From a virus (taxonomy: Duplodnaviria > Heunggongvirae > Uroviricota > Caudoviricetes), in the IMG/VR virus record IMGVR_UViG_3300033068_001916: DNA of 64,000 nt; one strand, written 5' to 3'. Positions 1 through 30,958 of the stretch are shown here, piece after piece (position 1 is the first letter of the stretch; every line of letters starts with the position of its first letter). The position numbers were made by a program, and so were the translations under genes. The notes beneath the pieces were generated by a model. It worked only from the letters and a program-made list of their open reading frames with translations, was not told the DNA's origin and ran no database searches.

Positions 1-630
1 ACCAAGAATGGTTATTCGGAAGCTGCAGTTCACAAGATCCTCAAAGATCTAAAGATAGATGAACCTGTTCTAAACATATACAGATACGGTAGTCGAATCT
101 ACGGAACTGCTGATCAGAATTCGGATCACGATTACATCATAGTTACCAAGGGAGCAATGTTAAAGAGCGGTGCTTTTAAACAGAATGCCATCTCTAGCGA
201 AAATCGTAACATCCAAGGGATTCTTTATTCCAGAAGTGGATTTATAGATGCCATAAACAACTATGATATCAGTGCACTTGAATGTCTTTCGCTGAATCCG
301 GAAGATGTTGTTAAAAGCACTTGGCCTTTCAAGGTACAAAAGTGGGACAATAAGGTAATGACGAAAAAGATCATCTCCAAAGTTTCTGCTTCGTGGCACA
401 CTGCTGATATGCAGGCGAGAGACGGATTCAAGGATCGTGCAAAGAAGGGTATATTTCACGCACTGAGAATATTAAATTTTGCTTTGCAGTTGAAAGAAGC
501 TCAAAAGATAGAAGATTTTGGATGTGTTAATTATATCTGGGAGGATTTTAGATTGATCCCTGACGAAGAGTTCGACACAAGAGATTATATTGGTGAGAGA
601 GATGAATTGATGGAGCAATTAAGATCATGA
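1..630 (+). CDS. Pol-beta superfamily nucleotidyltransferase-domain protein (5' partial, continues upstream of window)
   Basis: Frame is open from base 1 through the listed ORF 157..630. Motif RYGSRIYGTADQNSDHDYIIV matches the minimal nucleotidyltransferase signature G[SG]-x9-13-DxD. Confidence 0.5.
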   Translation, partial: TKNGYSEAAVHKILKDLKIDEPVLNIYRYGSRIYGTADQNSDHDYIIVTKGAMLKSGAFKQNAISSENRNIQGILYSRSGFIDAINNYDISALECLSLNPEDVVKSTWPFKVQKWDNKVMTKKIISKVSASWHTADMQARDGFKDRAKKGIFHALRILNFALQLKEAQKIEDFGCVNYIWEDFRLIPDEEFDTRDYIGERDELMEQLRS

Positions 631-827
631 AATTAAAGGTAGGAGATAAAGTAAGGAAAAATCCAGAAACATGGATCGGAAGTGATTTTGATAGCTGGGG
701 AGCTGGCGTTGGAGTAGGTGAAGTTGTAGAACCACCATTCGAATTAGATGAAGGTGACGTTGATGTTAGATGGCCAGCAGGAAGATGCTTTCAAAGGGCC
801 AATGAACTTATAAAAGTTGAGGAATGA
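627..827 (+). CDS. hypothetical protein
   Basis: ORF with ATGA overlap to the upstream gene, in an operon-like + strand series. Confidence 0.4.
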   Translation: MKLKVGDKVRKNPETWIGSDFDSWGAGVGVGEVVEPPFELDEGDVDVRWPAGRCFQRANELIKVEE

Positions 828-1051
828 TAACAATAGACGAAAAGAAACTTAACCATTACTATCAGGAATACCTAAACCGTATCGCGGAGGATCCATCGGC
901 AAGCAAGAATTTAAAATATCTGGCTCCTGAAAATTGGTACAATACCGATCTAATATCGTGTGTATTTGCATCTATATTGGAAAGTAATTTTTCCGATATA
1001 GCAACTCTTAAAGAAGTTAAATTTGAAAATTTAAAAAATGAAAATAGCTGA
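824..1051 (+). CDS. hypothetical protein
   Basis: ORF with ATGA overlap, same orientation. Confidence 0.4.
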   Translation: MITIDEKKLNHYYQEYLNRIAEDPSASKNLKYLAPENWYNTDLISCVFASILESNFSDIATLKEVKFENLKNENS

Positions 1052-1883
1052 TTTTATATCAAAATCCATACAGGAATATCCATCACTATACAAGGATGCC
1101 GATTACGAAAAATCCAAAATGAAAGTTTTGGATCACATATTCTTTACAATAGGGAATGGAATGGAACTTGCAGAAACTGAGGTTCCTGGTGAAGGTGGAT
1201 ATGTGGTATCCCCCAAATATAAAAGAGATAAAATCAACGATGAGTGGTACAGGGTAAAAGATAAACCATACGGAAAGGAAAGATATAAAAAAATCCCCGA
1301 TACCTATTTTGATGATATTGTCTATTATGTTTATGCGGGTATACCAGCATTTGATGTGGTTGTTGTAGATAAGGATGGGTACGGTAAGAGTTCATACATC
1401 AGATATGATAAAAGAGTCAATAAGGAACACTCAGAACCTAGATTATATAAGGCTGAATCGAACCATCCATTTTCTCCATATCCATTTAGTAAAGAACACT
1501 CATTGGCATGCGAGGTGTTTTACAAAGGAGTATTCATTCAACCCGATTGGATGGAAGAGCTTATTAAGTTATGTGAAAGAACACAGATTTATTTCGCTAA
1601 CGAGGAGGAGTATTCAAACAACGTATACTATCCATCAGAAAGTAGAATAAAATCCGATCTTAGAGCATTTCAAAAAAGATATGAAGAATCGTCAGGGAAG
1701 GGAATTAAGGATCTTCGAAAAATATGGGGTTATCAAATAAATGAAACCGTTCCTGATTTTGAGGAGATTAGGAAGAGAAAGACCGAATCATGGGAGAAGT
1801 TTAGAAAATCACAAATTCAATTTCTAACCAAATTTATTAAGAAATTTAAAAAATCTGAAAATGAAAATAAAAGCAATTTATAA
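1038..1883 (+). CDS. hypothetical protein
   Basis: 281-aa ORF, overlaps neighbours in phage style. Confidence 0.55.
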   Translation: MKIADFISKSIQEYPSLYKDADYEKSKMKVLDHIFFTIGNGMELAETEVPGEGGYVVSPKYKRDKINDEWYRVKDKPYGKERYKKIPDTYFDDIVYYVYAGIPAFDVVVVDKDGYGKSSYIRYDKRVNKEHSEPRLYKAESNHPFSPYPFSKEHSLACEVFYKGVFIQPDWMEELIKLCERTQIYFANEEEYSNNVYYPSESRIKSDLRAFQKRYEESSGKGIKDLRKIWGYQINETVPDFEEIRKRKTESWEKFRKSQIQFLTKFIKKFKKSENENKSNL

Positions 1884-2112
1884 AAGAAATCTGAAGATGC
1901 CTGAAGGTAAGGTGGCTTCGCAGGTTGCACATGCTGTTAAGAATCTCGGTATTACACCTATAGATTCCATCATAGTTGTTCTTTGTGTTTCTGATAAGAA
2001 ATTCGAAGAGCTTGTTGCGGAGCATCCGAATTGTTATGTTCAAACTGATATGGGTTTAACTTGTGTTGAAAGTGGTACAAGAACTGCTGCAGCATGGATA
2101 GAAGAGGAATAA
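1861..2112 (+). CDS. peptidyl-tRNA hydrolase PTH2-like (short)
   Basis: KMPEGKVASQVAHAV and TDMGLTCVESGTRTAAAW resemble the PTH2 motifs GKGKIAAQCSHA and D.G.T..pG..TvlaiGP. Confidence 0.5.
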   Translation: MKIKAIYKRNLKMPEGKVASQVAHAVKNLGITPIDSIIVVLCVSDKKFEELVAEHPNCYVQTDMGLTCVESGTRTAAAWIEEE

Positions 2113-2558
2113 TGGTAAATAAGGTCAATATAAACAACAGAAAAGCAAAGTTTGATTACGAGTTCATCAGAACTTTAGTAGCAGGTATGCAATTACTTGG
2201 ATCTGAGGTAAAGGCTATCCGTGACGGCAGAGTCTCTTTTGTTGACTCGTACTGTTACTTCAATGGTAAGGAACTTTTTCTAAAGAACCTAAATATAACT
2301 CCAATATCCTCGACATATTCACATGAGCCAAATAGAGAGAGAAGATTGCTACTTAATAAGAGCGAGCTTAGAAAGCTACAGAATGAAATGGATAGAGGAA
2401 TGACAATAGTTCCATTCCGTATTTTTACCAATGAGAAAGGTTTAATCAAATTGGATATTGCTCTTGCCAGAGGTAAAAGAAGCTATGATAAGAAGGAAAA
2501 AATAAAAGAGGCAGACATAAAAAGAGATACAAAAAGGACAATTGCTGGTGATATATAG
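2094..2558 (+). CDS. smpB: SsrA-binding protein SmpB
   Basis: 154 aa. The N-terminal half aligns to E. coli SmpB along its length: KAKFDYEFI with GSEVKAIRDG and DSY; NITPI; EPNRERRLLLNKSELRKL versus DPTRTRKLLLNQRELDSL. Confidence 0.85.
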   Translation: MDRRGIMVNKVNINNRKAKFDYEFIRTLVAGMQLLGSEVKAIRDGRVSFVDSYCYFNGKELFLKNLNITPISSTYSHEPNRERRLLLNKSELRKLQNEMDRGMTIVPFRIFTNEKGLIKLDIALARGKRSYDKKEKIKEADIKRDTKRTIAGDI

Positions 2559-3612
2559 GTATAAAAATATACCCTATATGAGACACGATAAAAGATATTT
2601 GATTAACTACCTAATAGAGAATTATAGCAAAAAAAGTAAATCTGAGATAACCGATGAACTTGGAATTTCTTGGTCATACATTCAAAAAATAGCGTCATTA
2701 AACGGTATAAAAAGAGGATTTTGTGAAAATAAAAACGGTGGTAAATACTCGATATTAACAAAATATGACGACGTAAAAAGTTGTTATTGGTTGGGATTTA
2801 TGTTAGCTGACGGTAATATAAGCAAAAAAAATAATATGATGCTAAATTTGGGAATAAAGGATAAAGATCATATACTCAAAATAGAAAATCATATTGGAAA
2901 AACTAGTGTATATTGCCAAAATGACAATATAGTAAGAGTTGTTTTAAATGACTCTGTGACATTTAAAAAAATAGCATCTGATTTTGACTGGAAACCAAAT
3001 AAAACAAAGAATCCACCAGTCTTATGTGAATCAATGCCTCATGATTCCATATTTTCAATGGCCGTCGGATTTATTGATGGTGATGGGTGCATTGATGAAA
3101 GATATGGTCTTAGTGTTAAATGTGATGGGTCATGGCAGGATATACTTAATTATTTTTATTTGATATTAACTGGTGATCATAAAAAATATGAAATTAACAA
3201 CAATGGATATTCGGTATTTCGTATAAATAGTATGATAAAGTTAAAAGAAATAAAGAAAAAAATTATGGCTCTTGATATTCCAGCGATGGATAGAAAGTGG
3301 AATAAAATAGATATTAATAGAATATACAAATCGGAGAAAGAATCCATCATCTCCGAGATGCTAAATAACGGGGATCCTATGGAATTAATATTGGAAAAAA
3401 CTGGATTCAGTAAAACCTTATATTATTCAGTAGCAAATAAGAATGGTGTAAATATAAGAAAAAATAAAATATCCGATGAACAATATCTATCAATAATAAC
3501 AATGTATAATAGCGGTACAAAGCCATCAGAAATATCAAGATCCCTTATATTAAGTGCATCGACAATACATAGACAAATTAAAAAATACAAGGACACTAAA
3601 AGAAGCATATAA
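2542..3612 (+). mobile_element. free-standing LAGLIDADG homing endonuclease gene (two LAGLIDADG motifs with N- and C-terminal HTH domains)
   Basis: Motifs WLGFMLADGNI and AVGFIDGDGCI. HTH-like segments are ITDELGISWSYIQKIA and PSEISRSLILSASTIHRQI. The ORF overlaps the smpB 3' end by 17 nt. Confidence 0.8.
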
Positions 3613-4061
3613 TGGAAAGAATTGAAATGAGGGATAAGTCACACAGATCCCCTAAAAAGATCCAAACGAAACCTACTAGTGAGCAGAAGGAGGAAAGATC
3701 TGATTATGATGAAACCCCAAATAAAAATTCAGCCGCAGAGTCTCTGGATGATGGATATTTAGTGGTCATGGTTAGCTATTTAGAAAATAACGCTCAGATG
3801 GGAATCAGTCACGTGGAAGCAACAATAAGAAGAATAGACGAAGACGAATTCAGAGAGGAGATAGCCAAATGCAGAGGAAGCAAACCTGCAACTTTCTTAG
3901 TCATTAATAAATACTCTCCAATAAACAGAGAAAGTAGATCCACTGGAAATATCAGTATCGGTCATCTCCCAGGATCGTCAGAATGGTCTTTGGGTGTTCC
4001 TGGCTCTTCCGGAACCTCGGGAGCTGATGGAGTCCAATTTAAAGACCCTTTCGCATGGTAA
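3612..4061 (+). CDS. hypothetical protein; the C-terminus ends in a short GSSGTSGADG collagen-like tract
   Basis: 149-aa ORF. The C-terminal GSSGTSGADG resembles the start of the repeats in the 60-kb collagen-like gene. Confidence 0.5.
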   Translation: MERIEMRDKSHRSPKKIQTKPTSEQKEERSDYDETPNKNSAAESLDDGYLVVMVSYLENNAQMGISHVEATIRRIDEDEFREEIAKCRGSKPATFLVINKYSPINRESRSTGNISIGHLPGSSEWSLGVPGSSGTSGADGVQFKDPFAW

Positions 4062-4330
4062 GAGCTATGGTGATTATGATTTTAGTCCCAATATTATGTA
4101 TATTACTTATTGAAGCGCTCCATACGAAGCCAAATCGATATGTTGGTACAGTAATAAAGGTAAGCAGTTGGGATGGAGCAGCAAGCTTAAAAACAAAGAA
4201 TAAACATGGAGATGATACCATCATAACGGTTCATCCCAGAAGACTTGAAAGATTCACGGAAGGTCAGATAATCACAGTATGGACCGGAGGAGATCTAGTT
4301 GGAGGAATAGGATCAACAGAACCACAATAA
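4055..4330 (+). CDS. small membrane protein
   Basis: Hydrophobic N-terminus MVRAMVIMILVPILCILLI. Confidence 0.45.
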   Translation: MVRAMVIMILVPILCILLIEALHTKPNRYVGTVIKVSSWDGAASLKTKNKHGDDTIITVHPRRLERFTEGQIITVWTGGDLVGGIGSTEPQ

Positions 4331-4338
4331 TATAATAA

Positions 4339-4506
4339 AATGACAGTAAGAGATTTAATTAAAATATTAGAAAAAATCGATGGCGATAAGATGGTCATCA
4401 TGACCGATCCTGATGGGATAGGGTGGACCAACGTAGGTGATATTGTCGAGGAACAATGTCAGGTGAAAATAATGGAGGATGGTGATGGACTATTCCATGA
4501 TAGCTA
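4339..4506 (+). CDS. hypothetical small protein
   Basis: Unlisted 55-codon ORF that fills an intergenic gap. Confidence 0.3.
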
Positions 4507-4724
4507 ATATGAAGTACTATTTTATAACATATCAGGCAACAAATAACGAGGGTTCCGTATCAAAATGGAATCAGGTTATTGACATCTCACCAATGGAGTT
4601 TATAAAGAAGGTTGAATCTGCAGAGGATGGTGCAACACCATACAGAAAATACAGATCATTCGTTGTTATAAACACATGCGAAATATCTGTGGAAGATTAT
4701 AATAAATTCGAAGACAAATTTTAA
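4479..4724 (+). CDS. hypothetical protein
   Basis: ORF. Confidence 0.45.
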   Translation: MVMDYSMIANMKYYFITYQATNNEGSVSKWNQVIDISPMEFIKKVESAEDGATPYRKYRSFVVINTCEISVEDYNKFEDKF

Positions 4725-4734
4725 AAATTGGAAT

Positions 4735-5211
4735 ATGAGCTGGGTAGAAGACATAAAGAAAATAGCTATAGAAACATTTGTGATGGACAAGGAGTCAATT
4801 CACGGTATACATCACTGGGAAGAGGTTTATGAAAATGGCATGATGCTTGCAAATCAACCAGGTGTTGATTCTTTAGTGGTTAAACTCTTTGCATATCTTC
4901 ATGATTGTAAAAGAGAGGATGACCATCAGGATCCGGAACATGGGGACAGAGCAGCTGATTTTGTCGTTTGGCTCAGAAATTCTGGTAAACTATTCTTTCT
5001 AACTGAAACACAATATAAGCAGCTTTGGATGGCTTGTCTTCAACATCATAAGGGTGTTGTTGAAACGGAGGACATCACAATAGGGGCATGTTTCGACGCA
5101 GATAGAATAGAACTTATAAGATGTGGGATAACCCCAAGGGAGGATCTGATGAGCACACCTATGGGGATTAGGATTGCTAAAAAAATGAATGAATTAAAAA
5201 CAGGACATTAA
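4735..5211 (+). CDS. HD-domain phosphohydrolase
   Basis: HGIHHWEEV ... LHDCKRED ... HGDRAADF gives the H..HD...D pattern of HD hydrolases. Confidence 0.5.
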   Translation: MSWVEDIKKIAIETFVMDKESIHGIHHWEEVYENGMMLANQPGVDSLVVKLFAYLHDCKREDDHQDPEHGDRAADFVVWLRNSGKLFFLTETQYKQLWMACLQHHKGVVETEDITIGACFDADRIELIRCGITPREDLMSTPMGIRIAKKMNELKTGH

Positions 5212-5447
5212 TGGCAAAATTATATGATGGTGTGGAAATCGCAGCTAAGAAAGGCAGAAAAACAACAGGCAGCAGAAATGCGGGAAACCGTCTTTTTGAT
5301 TCTTTGGATATGGCTATCGTCAAACATGATGAGGTCATTCACAATGCTCAAATCAAGAGGGGTGAAATAGAGAAGGGCAAGCAACATATGATATACCAAT
5401 GTGGGTGTGGTAGTAGTGGTTGTTGTATTCATATTGAGGTTAAATAA
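5211..5447 (+). CDS. hypothetical protein
   Basis: ORF with ATGA overlap. Confidence 0.4.
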   Translation: MAKLYDGVEIAAKKGRKTTGSRNAGNRLFDSLDMAIVKHDEVIHNAQIKRGEIEKGKQHMIYQCGCGSSGCCIHIEVK

Positions 5448-5460
5448 AACATAAATATAT

Positions 5461-5491
5461 TTTTTTATCAAGTGAGAATTTTGTATATTTG
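5461..5491 (+). promoter_or_regulatory. conserved phage promoter (upstream T-run, then -7 box TATATTTG)
   Basis: TATATTTG at 5484-5491, 20 nt before ATG 5511. Confidence 0.5.
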
Positions 5492-5510
5492 CATATTAAA
5501 TTAATATATC

Positions 5511-5828
5511 ATGGCAAAGTATTTAGGTGAAGTTGAAGTTAGCATGGATGATCCAAATAATCCATATTCAAAATTCACAACCAAGGACTGGATGTTTGAA
5601 TTTATAGAAAGATACGGATCAATAGACGGTTCACATCACAAGGATTGGGTAATGAACCAATGCACCAAAATCTATCACGGAACACCAGTTATAGTGAAAT
5701 TGGCATCATGGGATAATGGTGAAAGTGAATATAGAATAACGCTTGCTGAGGACTCAGATGATTATAAAAAATACGTCGAGATGACCGAGGAAGCTGGGTA
5801 CTCTATAGAGGAAGGGATTGCACCATAA
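5511..5828 (+). CDS. hypothetical protein
   Basis: ORF downstream of the conserved promoter. Confidence 0.55.
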   Translation: MAKYLGEVEVSMDDPNNPYSKFTTKDWMFEFIERYGSIDGSHHKDWVMNQCTKIYHGTPVIVKLASWDNGESEYRITLAEDSDDYKKYVEMTEEAGYSIEEGIAP

Positions 5829-5865
5829 TATTTCGTCACCACTAATTAAAATTAATAAATTAATT

Positions 5866-5896
5866 TTTTTTATATCGGAATAATTTTATACATTTG
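5866..5896 (+). promoter_or_regulatory. conserved phage promoter
   Basis: tttttttatatcggaa ... TACATTTG at 5889-5896. Confidence 0.5.
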
Positions 5897-5916
5897 CGAT
5901 ATAAAAATAAAAGACC

Positions 5917-6501
5917 ATGGATTTGACAAACTACGTAGACTGGTGCATAGCACAACACGATAACACCAACCACATGTATGACAAATATTTGCCATATTCA
6001 TTTCATCTAAGAATGGTTGATAGAGCAGCACAGCAATTTGAACATCTCCTGGATGACACAAAAGACATGCAAACCGGAAAATCTAGGGAGATTCTAGACG
6101 GAAGCAGATTGGGATTCGTTTCTCTTAGAATGGCTTGCAGAAAGGCTGGATGGGGTCACGATACAATAGAGGATACAAGAACATCCTATAATGATGCAGT
6201 TAATCATCTAGGAAAGGATGCAGCTGATATCGTTTATGCTGTTACTAACGAGAAAGGTAAAAATCGTGCAGAAAGAGCCAATGACAAATACTATGCTGGG
6301 ATAGTAGCAACGCCTGGAGCAGTTTTTGTTAAACTTTGTGACAGAATAGCTAATGTTCAATATGGTAAAATGACAGGTAGCGGTATGTATGATAAGTACA
6401 AAAAGGAGAACCCAAATTTCATTACTAAACTTGGTGGTGATGATAAGAACCACGAGTTAGCTCCAATGTTCGAATATTTAATCGATCTATTTAAAGATTA
6501 A
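5917..6501 (+). CDS. SpoT/RelA-type HD-domain (p)ppGpp hydrolase-like (Mesh1-like small alarmone hydrolase)
   Basis: GWGHDTIEDTRTSYNDAVNHLGKDAADIVYAVTNEKGKNRAER matches the RelA/SpoT HD block LLHDvvEDT...FG..va.lV.gVTK. Confidence 0.6.
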   Translation: MDLTNYVDWCIAQHDNTNHMYDKYLPYSFHLRMVDRAAQQFEHLLDDTKDMQTGKSREILDGSRLGFVSLRMACRKAGWGHDTIEDTRTSYNDAVNHLGKDAADIVYAVTNEKGKNRAERANDKYYAGIVATPGAVFVKLCDRIANVQYGKMTGSGMYDKYKKENPNFITKLGGDDKNHELAPMFEYLIDLFKD

Positions 6502-7720: not shown

Positions 7721-7779
7721 TGGGAGGTAGCTCAGTTGGTTAGAGCTCATTTTCGAAGGTTCGAGTCCTTCCCTCCCAA
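7721..7779 (+). ncRNA. 59-nt tRNA-like minihelix that lacks an anticodon arm
   Basis: TGGGAGG-TA-GCTC-AGTTGGTTA-GAGC-tcattttc-GAAGG-TTCGAGT-CCTTC-CCTCCCA-A. The 7-bp acceptor, canonical D arm and T arm are perfect, but only 8 nt lie between the D and T arms. Confidence 0.6.
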
Positions 7780-7980
7780 CTAAGCCAGTTTTTATGATGC
7801 ATCTCTATCGACAGAGAACCTTGTTTTAGATTTAATAAATAAGGTTAATGTGGTCGGGTAGTTTAAAAGTTTCCTAACCTTAAGGAAAAGTAAGGATGGT
7901 TTTGCAGAAGACAGTTTCCTCGCCTAGTGGAAAAGTCAGTATAAGAAGGGATACCGGTCGGCTTTAACCGGTTCCCAACA

Positions 7981-8104
7981 GGGGGAATAGGCCAGCGGTG
8001 TGGCGCGTCTCTAGCTTACATCATAGATATAATCTATGACGTCTTTCCACTAAGACGAAGTTTAGATGATTCAAGTGGCACGGGTTCGATTCCCGTTTCC
8101 CCCA
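7981..8104 (+). ncRNA. tRNA-like element with a ~90-nt structured insert
   Basis: Acceptor GGGGGAA/TTCCCCC, T arm ACGGG-TTCGATT-CCCGT, D-arm-like GGCC..GGCG. The insert contains the hairpins ATAGAT-ATAA-ATCTAT and CGTCTT-TCCACTA-AAGACG. Confidence 0.5.
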
Positions 8105-8351
8105 CTAACCGCGTCACTGTAAGATGCAGTGATAACTGGACACGAAATAAGGTGGTTCCGCGGATCACCAATAAAATCGTTCGAGGCAGAGTCCAAGTCC
8201 AGGGTTAGGATAAAGCTATTCGCTATTGAGCATACCATCCGATGGGTCAGCGAATTAACCATTGGAGACGCGTGGGGTATACTGACGTTGGTCTAACATA
8301 AATCCCCAACTGTAGATACGTACTAAGGGCTGTAAGGAAATTCTACAAAAA

Positions 8352-8504
8352 GGTTTGGTGGCAGAGTGGCTTAATGCGTCGGTCTCGTCCAATATGATCG
8401 GTTAAGAGTGAACTCCTTAATCTTTTGCTCATGGACCAAAACGGATGGCCCGTTTCGAGAAGCAAATATCGAAGGGCCCGCAGGTTCGAATCCTGCCCAA
8501 ACCA
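8352..8504 (+). ncRNA. tRNA-like element (153 nt) with a long insert
   Basis: Acceptor GGTTTGG/CCAAACC, T arm GCAGG-TTCGAAT-CCTGC, discriminator A. Confidence 0.5.
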
Positions 8505-8591
8505 CAAAACAAGTAAAACGCAAACGCACGGGCCCTAGATGCATAAGGTGAAGCGCACCCCGTATACTGGATGACCTCTGTTTTTTTTAAC

Positions 8592-8712
8592 GGCCAAATG
8601 GCGAAATTGGAAGACGCAGTGGCAAGTGAGTAATAGAGTAAGCGTAAAATAGCACTGCTCCCCATTTCGGGTCACAACCGCTAGATTACAGGTTCGATCC
8701 CTGTTTTGATCG
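8592..8712 (+). ncRNA. tRNA-like element (121 nt) with a class-II D arm and an insert
   Basis: GGCCAAA-TG-GCG-AAATTGGAAGA-CGC ... ACAGG-TTCGATC-CCTGT-TTTGATC. One acceptor mismatch. Confidence 0.45.
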
Positions 8713-13553: not shown

Positions 13554-14045
13554 ATGAAGGTAATATTTCTTGATATCGATGGGGTACTGAATGTTTATTC
13601 ACATGACCATGACGAATTTGGAAGCCAATTCCATAGTCACTTCGTTGACAATCTTAAAAGGATCATAGACGAAACCGAAGCCAAAATTGTTATATCATCA
13701 ACTTGGAGATATGCAGGATTGGAAAGGATGAAGAAGATGTGGGAGAAAAGAGGTCTTCCGGGGGATGTTATAGACGTAACTCCCGATTGCACATACCTCT
13801 TCAATGAGGGGTTATTGGAATTAACCACTAGAATTGAGAGAGGATATGAAATTGAATACTGGCTGGATGAAAATCCAGGGGTTCAGAAATATGTTATTCT
13901 TGATGACAATGACGATTTCTTACCCTACCAGAGAGGTAATTTTGTAAGAACGTCAAATAATATCAATCATCCAGATTGTGTTGATATAGGATATGGATTA
14001 ACGAACGAGTGTACTAATAAAGCAATAAGAATATTAAATGGATAA
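13554..14045 (+). CDS. HAD-superfamily phosphatase (possible polynucleotide 3'-phosphatase)
   Basis: N-terminal VIFLDIDGVLN carries the DxDG(T/V) HAD motif I. Confidence 0.5.
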   Translation: MKVIFLDIDGVLNVYSHDHDEFGSQFHSHFVDNLKRIIDETEAKIVISSTWRYAGLERMKKMWEKRGLPGDVIDVTPDCTYLFNEGLLELTTRIERGYEIEYWLDENPGVQKYVILDDNDDFLPYQRGNFVRTSNNINHPDCVDIGYGLTNECTNKAIRILNG

Positions 14046-17639: not shown

Positions 17640-18476
17640 ATGAAAAACTTTAGTCTTGGCGATCGTATGAAGGAATTCTACGAAGACCGTTTTAGATACT
17701 ATGTTCCACGCAGAACATACACATTAATCAGAATTGATGGAAAAGCTTTCCACACTTACACAAGGGGTTTGGAATCTCCGTTCGACGCAGGGTTAATCGT
17801 GGATATGAATGAAACCGCAGCTTACCTTTGTAAAAATATACAGGGAGCAAAATTTGGATACGTTCAATCCGACGAGATCAGTATATTGATCACGGATTTC
17901 GAGGAAAGAGACACACAGATGTGGTTCGATGGGAATTTACAAAAGATGGCTTCCGTTGCAGCTTCTATGGCGACCTCTAAATTCAACGAATTGAGAGTTG
18001 ACAGATACATCAGGGAAAAGTTTAATAGTGGGATTGAAACCATAACACCTTTGTGGATAGAAAATCTGAAAAGAGTTAAAAAAGCAGAGTTTGATGCGAG
18101 GGTATTTCAGATTCCACAGAAGAGCGAGGTTGAGAACTATTTTATATTCAGACAACAAGACGGAACTAGAAATTCGGTTCAATCAGTTGCTCAGAGTTTA
18201 TATTCACAGAGTGAATTAAACGGAAAGAAAGAAAAGGATATGCAGGAGATGATATTCCAGAAGGGAATTAATTGGAATGACTATCACTTCAGAGAGAAAA
18301 GAGGTGGAATTATCGCTAAAGTACCAACAATGGTTGAAGGTAGAGATGGTCAGGTTGAAAGACTTAAGTGGCAAATGATACCAACACCTATATTCACTCA
18401 GGAGAGGGAATTTATGGATCAGATGATTCCAGACTTCGTGATTAAAACGAAACACCAAGATGAAGTTGAAATATAA
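17640..18476 (+). CDS. thg1: tRNA-His guanylyltransferase Thg1-like protein (3'-5' polymerase that repairs tRNA 5' ends)
   Basis: RIDGKAFHTYTRGLESPFDAGLIVDMNETA ... FGYVQSDEISILITDF ... ASVAASMATSKF matches Thg1/TLP conserved blocks. Confidence 0.75.
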   Translation: MKNFSLGDRMKEFYEDRFRYYVPRRTYTLIRIDGKAFHTYTRGLESPFDAGLIVDMNETAAYLCKNIQGAKFGYVQSDEISILITDFEERDTQMWFDGNLQKMASVAASMATSKFNELRVDRYIREKFNSGIETITPLWIENLKRVKKAEFDARVFQIPQKSEVENYFIFRQQDGTRNSVQSVAQSLYSQSELNGKKEKDMQEMIFQKGINWNDYHFREKRGGIIAKVPTMVEGRDGQVERLKWQMIPTPIFTQEREFMDQMIPDFVIKTKHQDEVEI

Positions 18477-21336: not shown

Positions 21337-22242
21337 ATGATAATAAATCTTTCTGAACCGTGCAGCTACGGTATAAAATTTAAAGTCTCTAAATTTCCTG
21401 ACGGACAACAATCCATCACCATATTAGAGGGCGAAGTTCTCAAACATGAAATGTTTGAGAAAATGGAGCCAGTGGTAATAAAGTCAAGGATAACATCCTT
21501 CCTAGATCTTGAGCTAGTTATTTGTGCAAACAAAGCTCTTAGAGAGCTTGGAGTTAAAAAAACTTCCCTAGAGATATCATATCTATTGGGGGCAAGATCT
21601 GATAGAAAATTTGAAACAGGTAGCGTTAATTACATTAAAGAAGTACTTGCTCCTATTATCAATTCACAGAAATTCACCAGGGTAACAATACTTGATCCTC
21701 ATTCCGATGTGACAGAAGCTTGTATCAAGAAGTTCAAAAAATCAACACAAATCACTAGTGGACTGATAACATTTGTTCTTAGAGATTATTTCAATAACGG
21801 AACCATCGATTATTCAGGAATGCGTTTAATTTCTCCTGATGCAGGGGCTCTCAAAAAAGTTTATGATGTTGCCGAGTCTATCGGATACAGAGAAGAAATA
21901 GTTATAGCTTCCAAACACAGGGACGTTAAGACTGGAAAAATAACACATACTGATGTTCCAGTAAACGTGGATGATCTAGATATAGATTTCTTTATTCTAG
22001 ATGATATAATAGATGGAGGACGCACATTCATCGAGATTGCTAAAGCTCTAAGGGAAAAAGGAGCGACTGGTAAGATTTTCCTTGTCGCAACGCACGGAAT
22101 TTTTTCAGCTGGTTTAAAGCCATTAAATGAGAACTTCGATGGGATCTACACAACGAATAGCTATGTTGATATCAGCGATCCAGAATTCTCACTGAGAAAC
22201 GATAACGAGCTTCATAAACTTAAACAATTAAAAGTAATATAA
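21337..22242 (+). CDS. prs: ribose-phosphate pyrophosphokinase (PRPP synthetase)-like; may instead be an ADPR-PP synthetase of the NARP1 type
   Basis: PRPP-binding loop FFILDDIIDGGRTFIEIAKALREKGA versus vLVDDmIDTGGTl; N-terminal KFPDGQQSITILEGEV versus rFsDGEi.v.i.esvRG. Length is 301 aa. Confidence 0.65.
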   Translation: MIINLSEPCSYGIKFKVSKFPDGQQSITILEGEVLKHEMFEKMEPVVIKSRITSFLDLELVICANKALRELGVKKTSLEISYLLGARSDRKFETGSVNYIKEVLAPIINSQKFTRVTILDPHSDVTEACIKKFKKSTQITSGLITFVLRDYFNNGTIDYSGMRLISPDAGALKKVYDVAESIGYREEIVIASKHRDVKTGKITHTDVPVNVDDLDIDFFILDDIIDGGRTFIEIAKALREKGATGKIFLVATHGIFSAGLKPLNENFDGIYTTNSYVDISDPEFSLRNDNELHKLKQLKVI

Positions 22243-22457: not shown

Positions 22458-22731
22458 AATGAGAGGTATGTTAGAAATTATAATTATAGGATTGGTATTA
22501 ATAGCAGGATTCCTATTTATCGGAGATACTGAGATTTCATTCTCCCCCTTTAGCATCAAGATGAATGCCCCACTAAATGCAATAGGATGGTTTTTATTAT
22601 CAATCGGGGTTGCCTGTATATCTGCTAATTCGAGACAAAAAGGACACAAGGAGGGAACAAAAGAAACACTAGATAATATAGTTGTTCATATCAGCAAGAA
22701 TGGGACAACCAAATCAGAAGATCTTAAATAA
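22426..22731 (+). CDS. small membrane protein
   Basis: TM-rich ORF. Confidence 0.4.
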   Translation: MTHCTFIKSNKMRGMLEIIIIGLVLIAGFLFIGDTEISFSPFSIKMNAPLNAIGWFLLSIGVACISANSRQKGHKEGTKETLDNIVVHISKNGTTKSEDLK

Positions 22732-23330
22732 TGAGCAAAGGATCTAAAGAATGTATGTATTGCGATGGTGAATGTAACAAGTACTGTTTGCACGAGGATG
22801 CAAGGAACGAACCAATACATCCCACATACGTAGAAATTAAGGGAGATCTAATTAAACTTGCAATGAAAGGTAATTTTGATGTTATATGTCACGGAGTAAA
22901 TTGCTACGCCACAATGGGAGCGGGAATAGCACCTCAGATGGCTAAAGCATTTGGATGTGACAAATTCCCATTAGAAGGTCAACAACACAGAGGTGATTAC
23001 AATAAACTCGGACAGATTGATTGGAAAGTCAATACCTACACAGGAGGAACTAGCGAATTTGATTTTTTTGAATTTGATTTAGCTGTTGTTAACATATATT
23101 CACAATATGGATTTGGATTAAATCACGAAGGTGGAACAGCTAAACCTATCGATTATGATGCCCTCAGATTGGGACTCAGAAAAATAAACCACCAATTCAA
23201 AGGTAGACACGTAGGACTTCCACAGATTGGCTGTGGTTTGGCCGGCGGGGATTTTAATGTTGTTAGAAGAATAATCCAGGAGGAGTTGAAAGATTGTAAA
23301 GTAACTGTTGTAATATACGATAAAGAATAA
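22731..23330 (+). CDS. Macro-domain protein (ADP-ribose binding or hydrolase)
   Basis: GDLIKLAMKGNFDVICHGVNCYATMGAGIAPQMAKAFG matches the Macro motif D.ivNaaN..l..GgGva.ai..aaG. Confidence 0.6.
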   Translation: MSKGSKECMYCDGECNKYCLHEDARNEPIHPTYVEIKGDLIKLAMKGNFDVICHGVNCYATMGAGIAPQMAKAFGCDKFPLEGQQHRGDYNKLGQIDWKVNTYTGGTSEFDFFEFDLAVVNIYSQYGFGLNHEGGTAKPIDYDALRLGLRKINHQFKGRHVGLPQIGCGLAGGDFNVVRRIIQEELKDCKVTVVIYDKE

Positions 23331-23963: not shown

Positions 23964-25040
23964 ATGGAAAAAAATAAACAGTTTTTAAAAGATTACTTAA
24001 ATGCATTTTCACCAGTTGGAAATGAAATCGAAGGCCAAAAGGTATGGGTTGACTATGTTAAGCCAATCGTTAATGAAATGAAAGTTGACGCATATGGAAC
24101 AGCATATGGTTTAATTAAAGGTTCGAATAGTGATAAAAAAGTGGTTCTGGAAGCACACTGTGACGAGATCTCATGGATTGTTACTGAAATTGAATCGAAC
24201 GGTATGGTGAGGGTTAAAACCAACGGAGGATCAGACAATATGATTGCACCATCGATGACAGTTATGGTTCATACACACGCAGGTAAAAAAGTACCTGGAG
24301 TTTTTGGATGGCCTGCTATTCACGTAAGAGAAAAAAGAGTTGAGATGGGTCCGGAAGTTCATGAACTTTGGATTGATCTTGGAGTTGATAGCTCAAAGAA
24401 AGTTTCAAAACTTGGAATTGAGGTAGGAAATTGTGTTACATTCGATCAAAAATTCTTTGAAATGGGCAAATACTACGTCGGTAGATCACTGGATAATAAG
24501 ATTGGTGGTTATATCATTGCAGAGGTTGCTAGGGAACTTAGAGAAGAAGGGACAATTCTCCCATTCGATCTTTATGTTGTTAATGCAATCCAGGAGGAAG
24601 TTGGTTTATTTGGTGCTAGATTAATTGCACAAACAATCAAGCCGGACATCGCATTGGTTCACGACGTTACGCACAACACAAACTCTCCTAAGATGAACAA
24701 GGCAAAATCTGGTGACATCAAGGGTGGTTCGGGTCCAGTTATCGAGTACTCGTCTCAGAATCACAAGGATCTAATTAATATAGTTAGAGATGTGGCTAAG
24801 GAGAAAGAGATACCATTGCAACTATCTGTTGGTTCTTATGGAAATGATACAGTGTCTTTCTTCTTAGAAAACGTACCTACTGTGATCGTAGCTAGTCCGT
24901 TAAAGTATATGCATACTACAATAGAGATGGTACATAAAGATGACGTATCGGCTGCAATACGGGTTTTTAAAGAGACGTTAAAAAAGTTGACCACTGGTAC
25001 CATAGTTACCATCAACGATCAAACACACAAATACGTATAA
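23964..25040 (+). CDS. M42-family metallo-aminopeptidase-like protein
   Basis: AHCDEISWIV ... SLDNKIGG resemble M42 (FrvX/YsdC) blocks; length is 358 aa. Confidence 0.45.
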   Translation: MEKNKQFLKDYLNAFSPVGNEIEGQKVWVDYVKPIVNEMKVDAYGTAYGLIKGSNSDKKVVLEAHCDEISWIVTEIESNGMVRVKTNGGSDNMIAPSMTVMVHTHAGKKVPGVFGWPAIHVREKRVEMGPEVHELWIDLGVDSSKKVSKLGIEVGNCVTFDQKFFEMGKYYVGRSLDNKIGGYIIAEVARELREEGTILPFDLYVVNAIQEEVGLFGARLIAQTIKPDIALVHDVTHNTNSPKMNKAKSGDIKGGSGPVIEYSSQNHKDLINIVRDVAKEKEIPLQLSVGSYGNDTVSFFLENVPTVIVASPLKYMHTTIEMVHKDDVSAAIRVFKETLKKLTTGTIVTINDQTHKYV

Positions 25041-26172: not shown

Positions 26173-26652
26173 ATGAAAATAACAGATAAATACGTATTTT
26201 TCTGGAATGGAATTTACTCCCAATGGCACAAAGCAAATATGGTCATTGATAAAATAGAATATAATTCATGTGAGCAATACATGATGCACCAAAAAGCATT
26301 GTTATTTGATGACGAGGAAACTGCAGAATTAATCATGCAGGAGAAAAACCCAAGGGAACAAAAGAAATTTGGAAGAATGGTTAAGGGATTTGATAAATCC
26401 GTTTGGGAAAAGAATTGTCTAGCTATTGTATATGAAGGAAACCTATCCAAATTTTCACAGAATGATGGTTTAAAGAAAGAGATGTTATCAACTGGTAATA
26501 GGTTTTTTGTAGAAGCTTCACCATTTGATACAGTATGGGGAATAGGTATGGATGAGAATGCACAAGGAGTTGAGGATCCATCATATTGGCTAGGGCTTAA
26601 TTTATTAGGACAAGCATTAACACTCGTTAAAAATGAGCTTCGAGGATCTTAA
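26173..26652 (+). CDS. NADAR (YbiA/DUF1768) domain protein
   Basis: FFWNG.YSQWH ... EQYMMHQKALLFDD ... KFSQN..LKKEMLSTG...FVEASPFDTVWGIGMDE ... LGLNLLGQAL aligns along the E. coli YbiA/NADAR fold. Confidence 0.7.
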   Translation: MKITDKYVFFWNGIYSQWHKANMVIDKIEYNSCEQYMMHQKALLFDDEETAELIMQEKNPREQKKFGRMVKGFDKSVWEKNCLAIVYEGNLSKFSQNDGLKKEMLSTGNRFFVEASPFDTVWGIGMDENAQGVEDPSYWLGLNLLGQALTLVKNELRGS

Positions 26653-26962: not shown

Positions 26963-26964
26963 TT

Positions 26965-27744: not shown

Positions 27745-27746
27745 TC

Positions 27747-28663: not shown

Positions 28664-28989
28664 CCAGAGGATATGCAAAAAAATTAGCAGAAAGGGTAAC
28701 AAACCAAGAGCTAAGAGATATGTTTTATAATGCACAAAGACACCTCATTCAATGGGGAGGATGGGATAAGGCAAGCAAAAATAACAAATCAATATCTGTA
28801 GCTTGTGCATTTAATATACTCTCATGCGGAGTTGACAATGAAGATTTTCTATCTAAAAAATTGAATGATATTGTTAAGTTCAATATGATTAGAGAATTTG
28901 GCGAGCATTTACCGGATTACATACCGGAACAAAAAGAGGTAAAAAAGGATATAAAGATTATACATCACGAACCTAAATTTTTAAAATAA
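28660..28989 (+). CDS. hypothetical protein
   Basis: ORF. Confidence 0.45.
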   Translation: MTRGYAKKLAERVTNQELRDMFYNAQRHLIQWGGWDKASKNNKSISVACAFNILSCGVDNEDFLSKKLNDIVKFNMIREFGEHLPDYIPEQKEVKKDIKIIHHEPKFLK

Positions 28990-29225
28990 TGACATCAAAG
29001 GATTTCTGTTATTGGATTCAGGGCTTTTTCGAGCTATCTGAATCTGAACAATTAACACCTAGACAGGTGGAGATAATTAAGAACCATTTAAAATTGGTTT
29101 TCTATCACGAGATAGATCCTTCATATTCAGACGATCCCGAAATACAGGATGAAATGCAGGCAATTCATGACGGAAAACCTGAGAGGAAAAGAAATAACCC
29201 AGGAAACATATTAGTAAAATGCTAA
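28989..29225 (+). CDS. hypothetical protein
   Basis: ORF. Confidence 0.4.
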   Translation: MTSKDFCYWIQGFFELSESEQLTPRQVEIIKNHLKLVFYHEIDPSYSDDPEIQDEMQAIHDGKPERKRNNPGNILVKC

Positions 29226-29236
29226 AATAGATCGAT

Positions 29237-29440
29237 ATGATTAAAGTAATTTGGACACCAGAAAAGAAAGAAGCTGCAATTGATAAATTGACTAAATATT
29301 TCGAAAAACATGGGATTGGGGAAATGATTATGCAGAGCGACGATGGACTTATAGAAGCACCAGAGGTTCTTTCTGACATAGCTGATGATATCCTAATTGA
29401 TAACGAGGGTATAATTTTTGAAGACGATGACGATGAATAA
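29237..29440 (+). CDS. hypothetical acidic protein
   Basis: ORF. Confidence 0.4.
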   Translation: MIKVIWTPEKKEAAIDKLTKYFEKHGIGEMIMQSDDGLIEAPEVLSDIADDILIDNEGIIFEDDDDE

Positions 29441-29693
29441 GCTTCAAACATTTGTAGTTTGGTTGGATGGGTTTCTCTCAGCTACAGGAGACAATTTAAC
29501 AATAGATCAAACAAGAACAGTTAAAAAGAAATTAAATGATCTTTTTGAACATGAAGCAGAACCACCAAAAAAGGCAAATCCTACATTAGCTGATCTCGGA
29601 AAAGAACACAATTTCGAAGTTAACCCAGGATTTCCAGGTGAAACTAATGGATTCCCAGGAAGGGACGAAGAAGGTGTTCTCTATAGATGCTAA
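29418..29693 (+). CDS. hypothetical protein
   Basis: ORF. Confidence 0.4.
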   Translation: MKTMTMNKLQTFVVWLDGFLSATGDNLTIDQTRTVKKKLNDLFEHEAEPPKKANPTLADLGKEHNFEVNPGFPGETNGFPGRDEEGVLYRC

Positions 29694-29992
29694 GGGGTCT
29701 TATTAAAAAGGATTGCGATAAATGGTATGTTGTTTCATGTTGTGGAAAATGTAATGGAATAGATGAGGTATGCCATAAATCGCTACATCAGATACACGAA
29801 TTAGACGAAAAAGATATCGAACTCATATATGAATATTCCGGAAGGAACGATTCGGATTTATGGGTGATGTATACACTCGAACCATTCAATACAGGACATC
29901 CTGCATATACAAATTATGCAAGAATTTCGATTGAGGATAAACCCCCGGTCTTTATGACACTTAGTGAATTAGATAATTTAATAGATTTTTAA
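29687..29992 (+). CDS. hypothetical Cys-rich protein
   Basis: ORF. Confidence 0.4.
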   Translation: MLRGLIKKDCDKWYVVSCCGKCNGIDEVCHKSLHQIHELDEKDIELIYEYSGRNDSDLWVMYTLEPFNTGHPAYTNYARISIEDKPPVFMTLSELDNLIDF

Positions 29993-30325
29993 ATGAGTAA
30001 AATAATTTATCTGGCATCGCCATATAGCAATCCGGACGATGACAAGAGACACAGAAACTTTGAGAAGGTATCAAAAATAGCTGCAGATTTATGTGCGGAA
30101 GGTCACGTAGCCTTCTCACCCATAACATACGGTCACACGCTACTCAATTACAAATTGATGCCAACCGACTGGCCATTCTGGAAAAACTTCTGTTTATCAT
30201 TTTTAGATAAATGTGATGAGCTACATATCTGCAAGATTGAAGGTTGGAATCAATCAAGAGGAGTTGCAGAAGAGATAGAATATGCTATCCAGAAGGGGAT
30301 ACAAATAAAATATATTGATTGTTAA
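29993..30325 (+). CDS. nucleoside 2-deoxyribosyltransferase-like (DUF1937/Rcl-like) protein
   Basis: N-terminal IIYLASPYS resembles the YLAGP motif of the NDT/Rcl fold; an acidic residue follows in EEIEYAI. Confidence 0.45.
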   Translation: MSKIIYLASPYSNPDDDKRHRNFEKVSKIAADLCAEGHVAFSPITYGHTLLNYKLMPTDWPFWKNFCLSFLDKCDELHICKIEGWNQSRGVAEEIEYAIQKGIQIKYIDC

Positions 30326-30332
30326 TTAAAAA

Positions 30333-30364
30333 TTTCCGAATAAAATTTTTTTATTCGGAAATTT
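30333..30364 (+). terminator. intrinsic terminator whose 3' stem arm is the promoter upstream element
   Basis: Perfect 13-bp inverted repeat tttccgaataaaa/ttttattcggaaa with a T-rich loop. Confidence 0.5.
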
Positions 30365-30376
30365 TGTTTATATTTG
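30346..30376 (+). promoter_or_regulatory. conserved phage promoter
   Basis: tttttttattcggaaa ... TATATTTG at 30369-30376. Confidence 0.55.
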
Positions 30377-30394
30377 CCTCATAATTAAAAGGAA

Positions 30395-30958
30395 ATGAAA
30401 AAAGCAATACTTTTTATTGGCCTACCTGGATCAGGGAAAACAACTATAGTAAATAGGGATTATTCCGAGGAATATACCGTAGTTTCTGCTGACAATATTA
30501 AACAGGGACATCCCGACTACGATCCTAATGATCCTGAACCACTTCATCAATGGAGCGTAAAGGAAGCAGAGAATCAAATGAATATTCTATCCGACCTTGG
30601 ATATTCCATCTGCATGGATTCTGGAGGTGTTAATAACTCATACTCTCTTAGAATAATCTCTATGCTAAAAACCAAAGGTTATCATATAACATTAGTTTAT
30701 GTTGAAACACCTCTGGAAATATGCTTAGAAAGAAACAAAAAAAGGGAAAGAAAAGTTCCAGAGCAAGCTATAATAGAGAAATCTAAAATGCTAGAGTCAT
30801 GTCTGGAAAAACAAAAATCAGTAGCTGATGATTATTTACATATACAATATAGAGAGAGTAAAAAATATTCATTCCCTTCTTTATCTATAGCAGGTAAATA
30901 CATCAGATCGATAATTCATCCAAGAAACAGGGAATTAATTTATAATCAGCAAATATAA
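30395..30958 (+). CDS. polynucleotide 5'-kinase (T4 Pnk kinase-domain-like P-loop kinase)
   Basis: AILFIGLPGSGKTTIVNRDY versus T4 Pnk IILTIGCPGSGKSTWAREF; ERNKKRERKVPEQAI versus KRNSKRGTKAVPIDV. Confidence 0.55.
   Translation: MKKAILFIGLPGSGKTTIVNRDYSEEYTVVSADNIKQGHPDYDPNDPEPLHQWSVKEAENQMNILSDLGYSICMDSGGVNNSYSLRIISMLKTKGYHITLVYVETPLEICLERNKKRERKVPEQAIIEKSKMLESCLEKQKSVADDYLHIQYRESKKYSFPSLSIAGKYIRSIIHPRNRELIYNQQI

Follow-up and report, generated by a model that had tools for sequence, protein, structure and literature searches.

The stretch of DNA analysed here (the window) comprises 64,000 nucleotides of a tailed phage (Caudoviricetes; IMG/VR record IMGVR_UViG_3300033068_001916). This 64-kb segment has a G+C content of ~35% and is densely packed with plus-strand genes, among which are predicted enzymes of RNA end repair and ribosome rescue, genes related to NAD+ and ADP-ribose metabolism, a P-loop kinase, and two arrays of tRNA-like elements. 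An earlier note, made from the sequence alone, had read some of these genes as a split toolkit for mending cleaved tRNAs. Profile searches confirmed that the open reading frames (ORFs) it named lie where it had placed them and belong to the superfamilies to which it had assigned them. Adding upstream sequence, we lean towards reading the window and the 9 kb before it as a loosely clustered "damage-reversal" island, in which a module for RNA end repair and translation rescue is interleaved with a module for NAD+ and ADP-ribose recovery and the kinase is placed at the interface of both.

None of 50,697 phage records was a close DNA match for the window. Matches to its Gp23-like capsid protein (38966-39865) were limited to uncultured megaphages of 460 to 735 kb and Tenacibaculum phage PTm1. 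Four IMG/VR contigs, 3300034116_002156 (430 kb), 3300032236_001850 (434.5 kb), 3300037346_000580, and 3300006056_000031, were collinear with the window at 58 to 93% amino acid identity, and in all four the order of ligase, first tRNA-like array, HAD phosphatase, Thg1-like protein, kinase, and second array was kept. By these comparisons, the window is predicted to be a piece of a ~430-kb phage genome that is kin to Bacteroidota-type megaphages. A public contig (L001) that is 100% identical to window positions 1 to 6261 adds 8,963 nt upstream; the DNA viewed amounts to about 73 kb of the ~430-kb genome, and relatives were viewed with 10-kb flanks.

Pfam scans (E ≤ 0.01) of 99 of the 108 plus-strand ORFs of at least 45 aa (the remainder being five ORFs of 45 to 59 aa and four repeat-region ORFs beyond position 60000) detected no RNA ligase, RtcB, Tpt1/KptA, 2H phosphoesterase, tRNA-splicing endonuclease, or Hen1 in the window. 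This agrees with the earlier note, which had seen no KxDG ligase there and had held that a ligase elsewhere in the genome would strengthen the repair idea. Such a ligase is encoded 5.9 to 7.1 kb before window position 1 (L001 1910-3046; 378 aa). It is of the Rnl5 type, with a KLDG motif, matches to PF21189 and PF09414, and a two-segment alignment to the Naegleria gruberi RNA ligase NgrRnl (PDB 5cot; 7e-66) that spans the N-terminal OB domain and the nucleotidyltransferase (NTase) domain; its VTEKLDGSS aligns with VTVKLDGSS of NgrRnl. Enzymes of the Rnl5 family seal 3'-OH/5'-PO4 nicks in duplexes.

Two candidate enzymes for restoring RNA 3' ends lie downstream of the ligase. The first, a class II CCA-adding-type enzyme (L001 7015-7761, 1.2 to 1.9 kb upstream of the window; 248 aa; PF01743, 1.3e-19), has GGxVRD, RRD, and DDPLR motifs that aligned with those of CCA-, CC-, and A-adding enzymes in the PDB at E values down to 4e-20. 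The alignments end at about residue 225 and cover the head and neck only, the tRNA-binding body and tail domains being absent. The second is a Pol-beta nucleotidyltransferase whose C-terminal 209 aa are encoded at window positions 1-630 (plus strand) and whose full 302-aa ORF occupies L001 8685-9593, on the same strand as the ligase and 5.6 kb downstream of it. It carries a G-S...D-x-D motif and matched phrog_388 (4e-11), with a weak NTP_transf_2 score of 20.4 bits against a cut-off of 21. The earlier note had proposed this protein as a possible CCA adder, a role that we reject, since it has no PolyA_pol match and its AF2 model (pLDDT 92.7) finds the two-domain nucleotidyltransferases LinB, KNTase, ANT, and HalB as its top folds. 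We consider it RlaP-related instead: the window protein itself had no match to PF10127 (RlaP) at E ≤ 1, and 16 of 30 close members of its ~205-aa core family had weak ones (best, 8.6e-6). Enzymes of the RlaP type extend damaged RNAs at the 3' end by 1 to 2 nucleotides. The protein is therefore better read as a putative RlaP-like end-filler, with the predicted CCA function assigned to the separate upstream gene.

A standalone HAD phosphatase at 13554-14045 (plus strand) belongs to the Swiss-army-knife (SAK) RNA-repair family. It matched PF18143 (HAD_SAK_2) over profile positions 1 to 130 of 139 (1.1e-27; 97.6 bits against a cut-off of 27.5) as well as phrog_1818 (1.3e-30), and it has a motif I of D7-I-D9-G-V and an acidic motif IV of L-D-D-N-D-D. 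Identity to homologues in clade relatives was 75 to 91%. We retain it as a candidate for the role of 3'-phosphatase that the earlier note had suggested. In a more distant relative, L203 (a 310-kb contig), the SAK HAD gene adjoins those for the kinase, the Thg1-like protein, and the Rnl5 ligase; in the window, 16 kb separate it from the kinase gene.

The gene at 17640-18476 (plus strand; PF04446, 1.1e-25; phrog_4717, 7e-81) encodes a bacterial-type Thg1-like protein (TLP), a predicted templated 3'-5' RNA polymerase, as had been proposed. Residues 5 to 263 of 278 aligned with the Bacillus thuringiensis TLP (BtTLP; PDB 4kgk) at 1.1e-56, and its D33, D78, and E79 correspond to the catalytic D30, D75, and E76 of that enzyme, with E15 and R31 corresponding to E12 and R28; the catalytic carboxylates are thus intact. 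Compared with BtTLP (Rao et al. 2011, Hyde et al. 2013), to which it aligns over its full length, the window protein is phage encoded, has a 15-aa C-terminal extension, and carries a 20-aa insertion at residues 117 to 145. Repair of tRNA 5' ends, including truncated ones, has been demonstrated for the Thg1-like family. Homologues are already annotated in 162 phage records.

Two genes at the start of the window point to translation rescue. The first (1861-2112, plus strand) encodes a minimal PTH2-type peptidyl-tRNA hydrolase of 83 aa, which scored 26.2 bits against PF01981 (cut-off, 23) when scanned alone. It is shorter than the full ~115-aa domain, ~30 central residues being gone. It has 315 homologues, of which nearly all of those listed are 80 to 88 aa long (~82 aa), and the motifs GK17...Q21..H24 and D63-x-G-L-T67 are invariant in 28 sequences. 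The AF2 model (pLDDT 93.3) matched only archaeal and human Pth2 structures in Foldseek (TMq, 0.7 to 0.8). The earlier note had counted two PTH2-like hydrolases. The second, however, lies outside the 1-30958 portion to which it referred and is degenerate: the ORF at 54023-54367 (plus strand) matched profile positions 2 to 71 of 115 of PF01981 (1.9e-6, 28.5 bits), lacks a start codon (ATG, GTG, or TTG), and has GY in place of the GK motif. Since it lacks both a canonical start and the motif Lys, it may be a pseudogene. Because ATG-ACT-TAG precedes this ORF in frame, stop-codon recoding was considered. It was rejected, as reading TAG or TGA as sense yielded almost no gain in coding coverage; the standard code applies, with stop codons in the window distributed as 84 TAA, 10 TAG, and 6 TGA.

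The second rescue gene (2094-2558, plus strand; PF01668, 6.7e-45) encodes a full-length SmpB with a basic C-terminal tail, in keeping with the earlier note. It exceeded the equivalog cut-off of NCBIfam PRK05422 (NF003843) over profile positions 10 to 153 of 156 (1.2e-47; 161.4 bits against 130). SmpB homologues were found in 68 phage records, Lak and 735-kb megaphages among them, and SmpB and tmRNA have both been reported in huge phages (Al-Shayeb 2020). No tmRNA was detected in the window by ARAGORN or Rfam, in line with the earlier note, which saw none, nor in L001 or ~20 clade loci. Use of host tmRNA by the phage SmpB, which that note took to be necessary, is one possibility for a ~430-kb genome of which ~73 kb was covered. 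Distant relatives on 140- to 190-kb contigs (L090, L096-L099, L101, and L104) carry a bona fide tmRNA with the tag GEVNNTSVSYAIAA, located ~1.7 to 3.8 kb into each locus and 2 to 4 kb upstream of a homologue of the window gene at 50118-50939. The idea that the tRNA-like elements of the window might serve SmpB as mini-tmRNAs was unsupported: no G3:U70 pair was seen by eye, and the tmRNA mode of ARAGORN was negative. Overlapping the end of smpB is an ORF of 356 aa (2542-3612) in which two motifs of the LAGLIDADG type, GFMLADGNI and GFIDGDGCI, were recognised by eye and which has a weak helix-turn-helix at its C-terminus; it is probably a free-standing homing endonuclease. A LAGLIDADG gene adjoins the CCA-type gene in the relative L182.

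By predicted family, then, the first module of the island is made up of the Rnl5-type ligase, the CCA-type enzyme, the RlaP-related nucleotidyltransferase, the SAK HAD phosphatase, the Thg1-like protein, the minimal PTH2, and SmpB. The second module is composed of four genes with putative roles in NAD+ and ADP-ribose recovery, all on the plus strand. A PRPP-synthetase-like (PRS-like) gene at 21337-22242 matched Pribosyl_synth and, below cut-off, TIGR01251 (1.3e-27), and is a candidate Adps-like enzyme. Beside it lies a Macro-domain gene at 22731-23330 (NCBIfam DarG macro, 2.3e-8; Pfam Macro, weak), followed by a NADAR-domain gene for ADP-ribose processing at 26173-26652 (PF08719, 8.8e-48) and a NAMPT/NAPRTase-like gene at 31828-33498 (PF04095, 6.4e-22; NCBIfam PRK09198, 2.3e-106), a candidate Namat-like enzyme. 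The kinase gene, which precedes the NAMPT-like gene by 870 nt, is in the same stretch as the PRS-like, Macro, and NADAR genes. Genes for nucleoside 2-deoxyribosyltransferase-like proteins (DUF1937/DUF4406 and Nuc_deoxyri_tr2) and for a possible SLOG-like protein were noted around the kinase and the NAD genes at 29993-30325, 38430-38963, and 40331-40897; L182 also has the first two next to its kinase gene.

The second module resembles the NARP1 pathway, in which a PRS-like and a NAMPT-like gene together reconstitute NAD+ (Osterman et al. 2024). The window has both, with a Macro gene beside the PRS-like gene, and the Macro phosphatase Adpp is a component of NARP1-AP; some relatives have a third gene between the core genes, and an accessory phosphatase lies between Adps and Namat in some phages (Osterman et al.). 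The differences are that the third gene in relatives encodes a kinase of the Pnk fold with a fused NT5C-like HAD domain, that the core genes of the window are 9.6 kb apart, and that Adps and Namat are here candidate identities as against true Prs and Nampt. Neither NARP1 paper (Osterman et al. 2024; 2026 preprint) mentions a kinase.

The kinase itself (30395-30958, plus strand) is a standalone P-loop protein of the Pnk/zeta/PSTK clade (AAA_33, 1.2e-15, 58.5 bits; Zeta_toxin, 7e-11, 42.3 bits). As a single sequence against the PDB it was ambiguous between Pnk and zeta toxin, the latter being the best match (5e-6, compared with 5e-5 for CthPnk). A profile of its family, built from kinase/HAD fusions, was closest to polynucleotide kinases (CthPnk, 2.9e-9; T4 Pnk, 1.6e-7; Pnkp1, 4e-6), followed by PSTK (5e-6) and zeta toxin (6e-6). 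The P-loop G9-x4-GKT16 is kept, D33 corresponds to D38 of CthPnk, and R113, R117, and R119 correspond to the lid residues R116, R120, and R123. Of 93 relatives, at least 24 are ~300 aa long and, in those examined, carry a C-terminal NT5C-like HAD domain in the architecture of T4 Pnk; more distant relatives are fused to HD domains.

The earlier note had described the kinase as T4-Pnk-like and had suggested that the HAD phosphatase could supply the other half of a split Pnk. The family profile is in favour of the first proposal, and the residues and neighbours discussed below speak against it. The second is rejected in its literal form. The fused HAD domain of relatives was searched against the SAK HAD of the window and against six-frame translations of the window and its upstream DNA, and motif I was all that was shared (BLASTP E = 0.01, 15 residues). 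The two HAD domains are unrelated beyond motif I, and the kinase and HAD genes of the phage are therefore not the separated halves of an ancestral gene; SAK HAD proteins are normally standalone (Iyer et al. 2021). The logic of T4 repair of PrrC-cleaved tRNA-Lys by Pnk and Rnl1, in which 5'-kinase, 3'-phosphatase, and ligase in turn restore a tRNA broken in its anticodon loop, could still apply, and in the kinase relatives the domains are placed as in T4 Pnk, with the kinase at the N-terminus and a DxDG HAD at the C-terminus. In contrast to T4, the kinase and phosphatase of the window are separate, 16 kb apart, with the HAD from another family; the ligase of the phage is a duplex-nick sealer and not Rnl1; the equivalent of Arg38 is not conserved; and the kinase is linked to NAD+ genes. 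The Pnkp-Hen1 and Pnkp1-Rnl-Hen1 heal-and-seal systems of Bacteroidota and Firmicutes offer a second comparison. The kinase profile was best matched by the CthPnkp kinase domain (2.9e-9), and the family profile matched both the kinase and phosphatase domains of Capnocytophaga Pnkp1. Unlike in those systems, neither the Hen1 methyltransferase nor the metallophosphoesterase was found here, and the components do not form one operon or complex.

From the biochemistry of these families, a repair pathway can be envisaged. A tRNA would be cut by a host ribotoxin, e.g., an anticodon nuclease; its 5'-OH would then be phosphorylated by the kinase, if that enzyme is a Pnk, and its 3'-phosphate removed by the SAK HAD. 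Lost 3' nucleotides would be restored by the RlaP-like or the CCA-type enzyme, lost 5' acceptor-stem nucleotides would be rebuilt by the Thg1-like enzyme, and the nick would be sealed by Rnl5. Ribosomes jammed by broken tRNA or mRNA would finally be cleared by PTH2 and SmpB. Substrates, step order, and cooperation between the genes are projections from known family members onto genes whose family membership, intact catalytic motifs, conservation, and collinearity were observed directly. With the upstream DNA included, the phage encodes a putative set for end healing, sealing, end restoration, and rescue, which upholds in part the proposal of the earlier note that the genes form a distributed counter-measure to tRNA cleavage; the assignment of the kinase as a Pnk is the weakened part.

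This gene complement is most likely one already described for jumbo phages, with the window adding a further example from an uncultured ~430-kb clade. In a survey of 224 jumbo phages, Iyer et al. 2021 (Viruses 13:63, section 3.4.9) listed tRNAs, ATP-dependent ligases, PNK, PKN-HAD or standalone SAK HAD, RlaP, a CCA-adding enzyme, sporadic Thg1, and PTH2, with PNK and HAD congruent with ATP-grasp ligases, and read the complement as a counter to tRNA-cleaving defences. The component list of the window and its upstream DNA is the same. It differs in that the ligase of the window phage is of the Rnl5 type (NgrRnl/DraRnl-like) and not Rnl1, Rnl2, or RtcB; that SmpB, unmentioned by Iyer et al. 2021, is present; that the kinase is without its usual fused HAD; and that the tRNA genes of the window are all noncanonical.

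Several observations weigh against the island as a repair system. Its genes are spread over ~40 kb among ~95 genes, in a genome of perhaps ~600 genes, and the "toolkit" is partly imposed by the annotator. A 2',3'-cyclic phosphodiesterase was not identified with confidence in the window, and no anticodon nuclease is known for the host. Rnl5 enzymes are sealers of duplex nicks, without a demonstrated role in anticodon-loop repair. The remaining points concern the kinase. The essential Arg of the Pnk acceptor site (R38 in T4, R41 in Cth; D-x-x-R in Pnk), three residues after the catalytic Asp, is not conserved, the kinase having D33-N-I-K36-Q37, and this local motif resembles the DxxKQQHPxFD of zeta toxin. 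In a census of 33 loci with a member of the kinase family, a NAMPT-like gene lay within 10 kb of the kinase in 21, compared with 1 for Rnl5, 4 for TLP, and 8 for SAK HAD. PRS-like, kinase/HAD, and NAMPT-like genes are contiguous in seven loci (L177/L178, L183, L187, L188, L190, L191, and L192). In one relative, the kinase is cut short by a deletion: at positions 3989-4531 of L107 (3300006056_000031), its first ~85 residues are joined to the C-terminus of the homologue of 34409-35407. Judging by the gene order of the window, this deletion would also have removed the NAMPT-like gene along with the rest of the kinase.

It is possible, therefore, that the kinase is not a tRNA 5'-kinase but an accessory enzyme of NARP1-like NAD+ reconstitution, which would convert an alternative NAD+ breakdown product to a usable intermediate; we treat this as a serious contender, at somewhat below an even chance. 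Possible routes are phosphorylation of ADPR-1''-phosphate to ADPR-PP or dephosphorylation as by Adpp, and the RNA-repair set would then be without a dedicated 5'-kinase. The seven contiguous loci and the 21 of 33 with a nearby NAMPT-like gene favour such a role, as does the recurrence of the kinase-NAMPT-like linkage in an unrelated cyanophage, Leptolyngbya phage Lbo-JY46, alongside the 870-nt distance in the window. The slot between the Adps and Namat genes is also the site of the accessory phosphatase of Osterman et al. A D-x-x-K...HP-x-[YF]-D motif is shared with small-molecule zeta kinases, the Pnk acceptor Arg is absent, and the single deletion in L107 spans the kinase and, by window order, the NAMPT-like gene. 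Against this role, the nearest solved relatives by profile are polynucleotide kinases, and a kinase domain at the N-terminus with a HAD domain (HD in more distant relatives) at the C-terminus is the classic end-healing layout. In L203, a standalone kinase directly precedes SAK HAD, TLP, and Rnl5 genes within 5.4 kb, and in Bacillus phage PBC2 a distant homologue adjoins an RNA ligase. In addition, eight near-identical loci have the kinase/HAD gene with no NAD genes nearby, and the linked genes may be counter-defence genes that are located together and do not share a pathway. In L203, NAMPT, Macro, NADAR, and PRS genes lie directly upstream of the kinase. We give a polynucleotide 5'-OH and a metabolite related to NAD or ADPR roughly equal weight as the predicted substrate. 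In many phages, a Pnk-fold kinase, often with a fused NT5C-like HAD domain, is found between or next to PRS-like and NAMPT-like genes (loci noted for these genes are L177, L180, L182, L183, L187-L192, and L203), which suggests that NAD+ reconstitution in phages includes an accessory step not yet described, and the NAD gene context of such kinases is a warning with respect to their automatic annotation as polynucleotide kinases.

The spacing of the genes, 2 to 13 kb with dozens of unrelated or unknown genes between them, could also mean that there is no functional unit and that independent auxiliary genes share the same early or accessory region, the toolkit being an artefact of annotation. Gene order differs, e.g., between the window and L203 or L182, and the kinase is dispensable in one relative. 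The contexts of HAD_SAK_2 and TLP homologues checked in cultured phages, such as the HAD_SAK_2 homologue of Klebsiella phage Olmo, were uninformative. We nonetheless regard this explanation as unlikely. The RNA-repair and NAD+-recovery modules are co-located in the window, L203, and L182 despite the shuffled order, with the set spanning 16 kb in L203 and ~40 kb in the window. The set recurs in unrelated megaphage lineages, homologues of the TLP, kinase, SmpB, and HAD being present in Lak and 735-kb megaphages. The phyletic patterns of PNK, HAD, and RlaP are also congruent with those of RNA ligases in 224 jumbo phages (Iyer et al. 2021). An island that recurs with both modules may mark new counter-defence genes among its many unknown ORFs.

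The tRNA-like elements lie in two plus-strand arrays. Array 1 (7721-8712) has four elements (7721-7779, 7981-8104, 8352-8504, and 8592-8712; Rfam tRNA, 27.6 to 47.2 bits) in which the anticodon arm is deleted or replaced by 40 to 81 nt. Array 2 (51470-53546) has eight (51470-51627, 51870-51963, 52063-52176, 52341-52448, 52610-52699, 52821-52948, 53040-53170, and 53402-53546; Rfam tRNA, 25 to 33 bits) with middles of 29 to 110 nt. All 12 have an acceptor stem of 7 bp, a D arm of the tRNA-Leu type, and a T arm, with a noncanonical region of 4 to 110 nt between; the 59-nt element at 7721-7779 is "armless," having no anticodon arm. CCA is encoded in none of the 12, and 10 have the trailer N-C-[A/U]-A-A. 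Between relatives, conservation of the middles equals or exceeds that of the acceptor stems.

ARAGORN called no tRNAs in the window in default mode and 9 to 10 in intron mode, all on the plus strand within the arrays. Intron mode called 10 of 11 native elements, compared with 43% when the middles were shuffled, and 7 of the 10 called anticodons were Leu or Ser, compared with 22% in shuffles (P = 0.0018). This bias fits the class II (tRNA-Leu-like) body of the elements, which is shared with canonical tRNA-Leu genes of a distant relative. On the reading of these genes as interrupted tRNAs, each has an insert of 16 to 77 nt in or beside the anticodon arm, too short for a group I intron. Given the 43% rate in shuffles and the different calls for orthologues, the intron calls were not accepted at face value and were used only statistically. 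Also rejected, as a general rule, was a placement of the inserts beyond an otherwise intact anticodon stem-loop: only 1 of the 12 elements has an uninterrupted canonical stem-loop, which is no more than in shuffles.

These elements raise the question of whether the enzymes mainly mature the phage's own tRNA-like transcripts, through insert excision, healing and sealing by the kinase, HAD, and ligase, CCA addition, and perhaps 5' polishing by the Thg1-like protein. The strand and array specificity of the intron-mode calls and their excess over shuffles are consistent with this, as are the Leu/Ser calls that match the class II D arm, the lack of encoded CCA, and the conserved middles. Lak megaphages, moreover, combine "enigmatic" tRNA introns with Thg1, peptidyl-tRNA hydrolase (PTH), a CCA-adding enzyme, and an RNA ligase. 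Still, such a primary role seems improbable. Rfam and the Pfam scans detected neither a splicing endonuclease nor a ribozyme in the window, the predicted insert positions (32 to 40) and lengths are inconsistent, and orthologous elements were called differently. Splicing could not yield a tRNA from the element at 7721-7779, which is without an anticodon arm. Many jumbo phages with ordinary tRNAs also have this enzyme set (Iyer et al. 2021), and Rnl5 requires a duplex nick. More doubtful again is the specific proposal that the heal-and-seal, CCA-type, and Thg1-like enzymes constitute a phage-encoded, protein-dependent maturation of the phage's own interrupted class II (Leu/Ser-like) tRNAs, a counterpart of eukaryal and archaeal tRNA splicing. 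If self-maturation were true, usable phage tRNAs would depend on phage enzymes, and the interrupted precursors might poorly suit host anticodon nucleases.

Lak megaphages of Prevotella (Devoto et al. 2018/2019) are a close parallel, as huge phages of Bacteroidota with Thg1, peptidyl-tRNA hydrolase, a CCA-adding enzyme, an RNA ligase, and tRNAs that have "enigmatic introns," and with homologues of the window TLP, kinase, and SmpB. In comparison, Lak phages use an alternative genetic code and the window phage the standard one, and some Lak tRNAs are interrupted, whereas all 12 window elements are noncanonical. Whether healing and sealing enzymes of phages process the "enigmatic introns" of megaphage tRNAs is a question that the window phage raises as well.

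Among the other genes of the window, two of the HD superfamily lie on the plus strand just upstream of array 1. The first (4735-5211) is a weak match (Pfam HD, 0.0039, below cut-off; PDB HD hydrolases, ~0.06) with H..HH..HD..D motifs, and its generic HD similarity makes it a possible candidate for a 2',3'-phosphoesterase. The second (5917-6501) resembles SpoT/RelA-type HD hydrolases (phrog_990, 2.5e-21; TIGR00691 spoT_relA, 6.7e-6, below cut-off) and could be a (p)ppGpp hydrolase; a gene annotated in the same way is found near the kinase homologue in Leptolyngbya phage Lbo-JY46. Auxiliary genes that are unusual for a phage include those for an M42 aminopeptidase (23964-25040), an M28 peptidase (35425-36171), and a 639-aa SPFH/Band 7 membrane protein (36419-38338). 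The adjacent pairs 15535-16125/16119-16766 and 33595-34002/34002-34409 have similar N-termini and the look of tandem paralogues, with no family match. Towards the end of the window, a Laminin_G_3/sialidase-like protein (58084-59730) precedes a region (60000-64000) in which the G+C content rises from ~33% to 45 to 47% and ORF translations are repetitive, of the VLQELVEAQ type, suggestive of a wrong-frame reading of a gene that is rich in repeats and possibly collagen-like.

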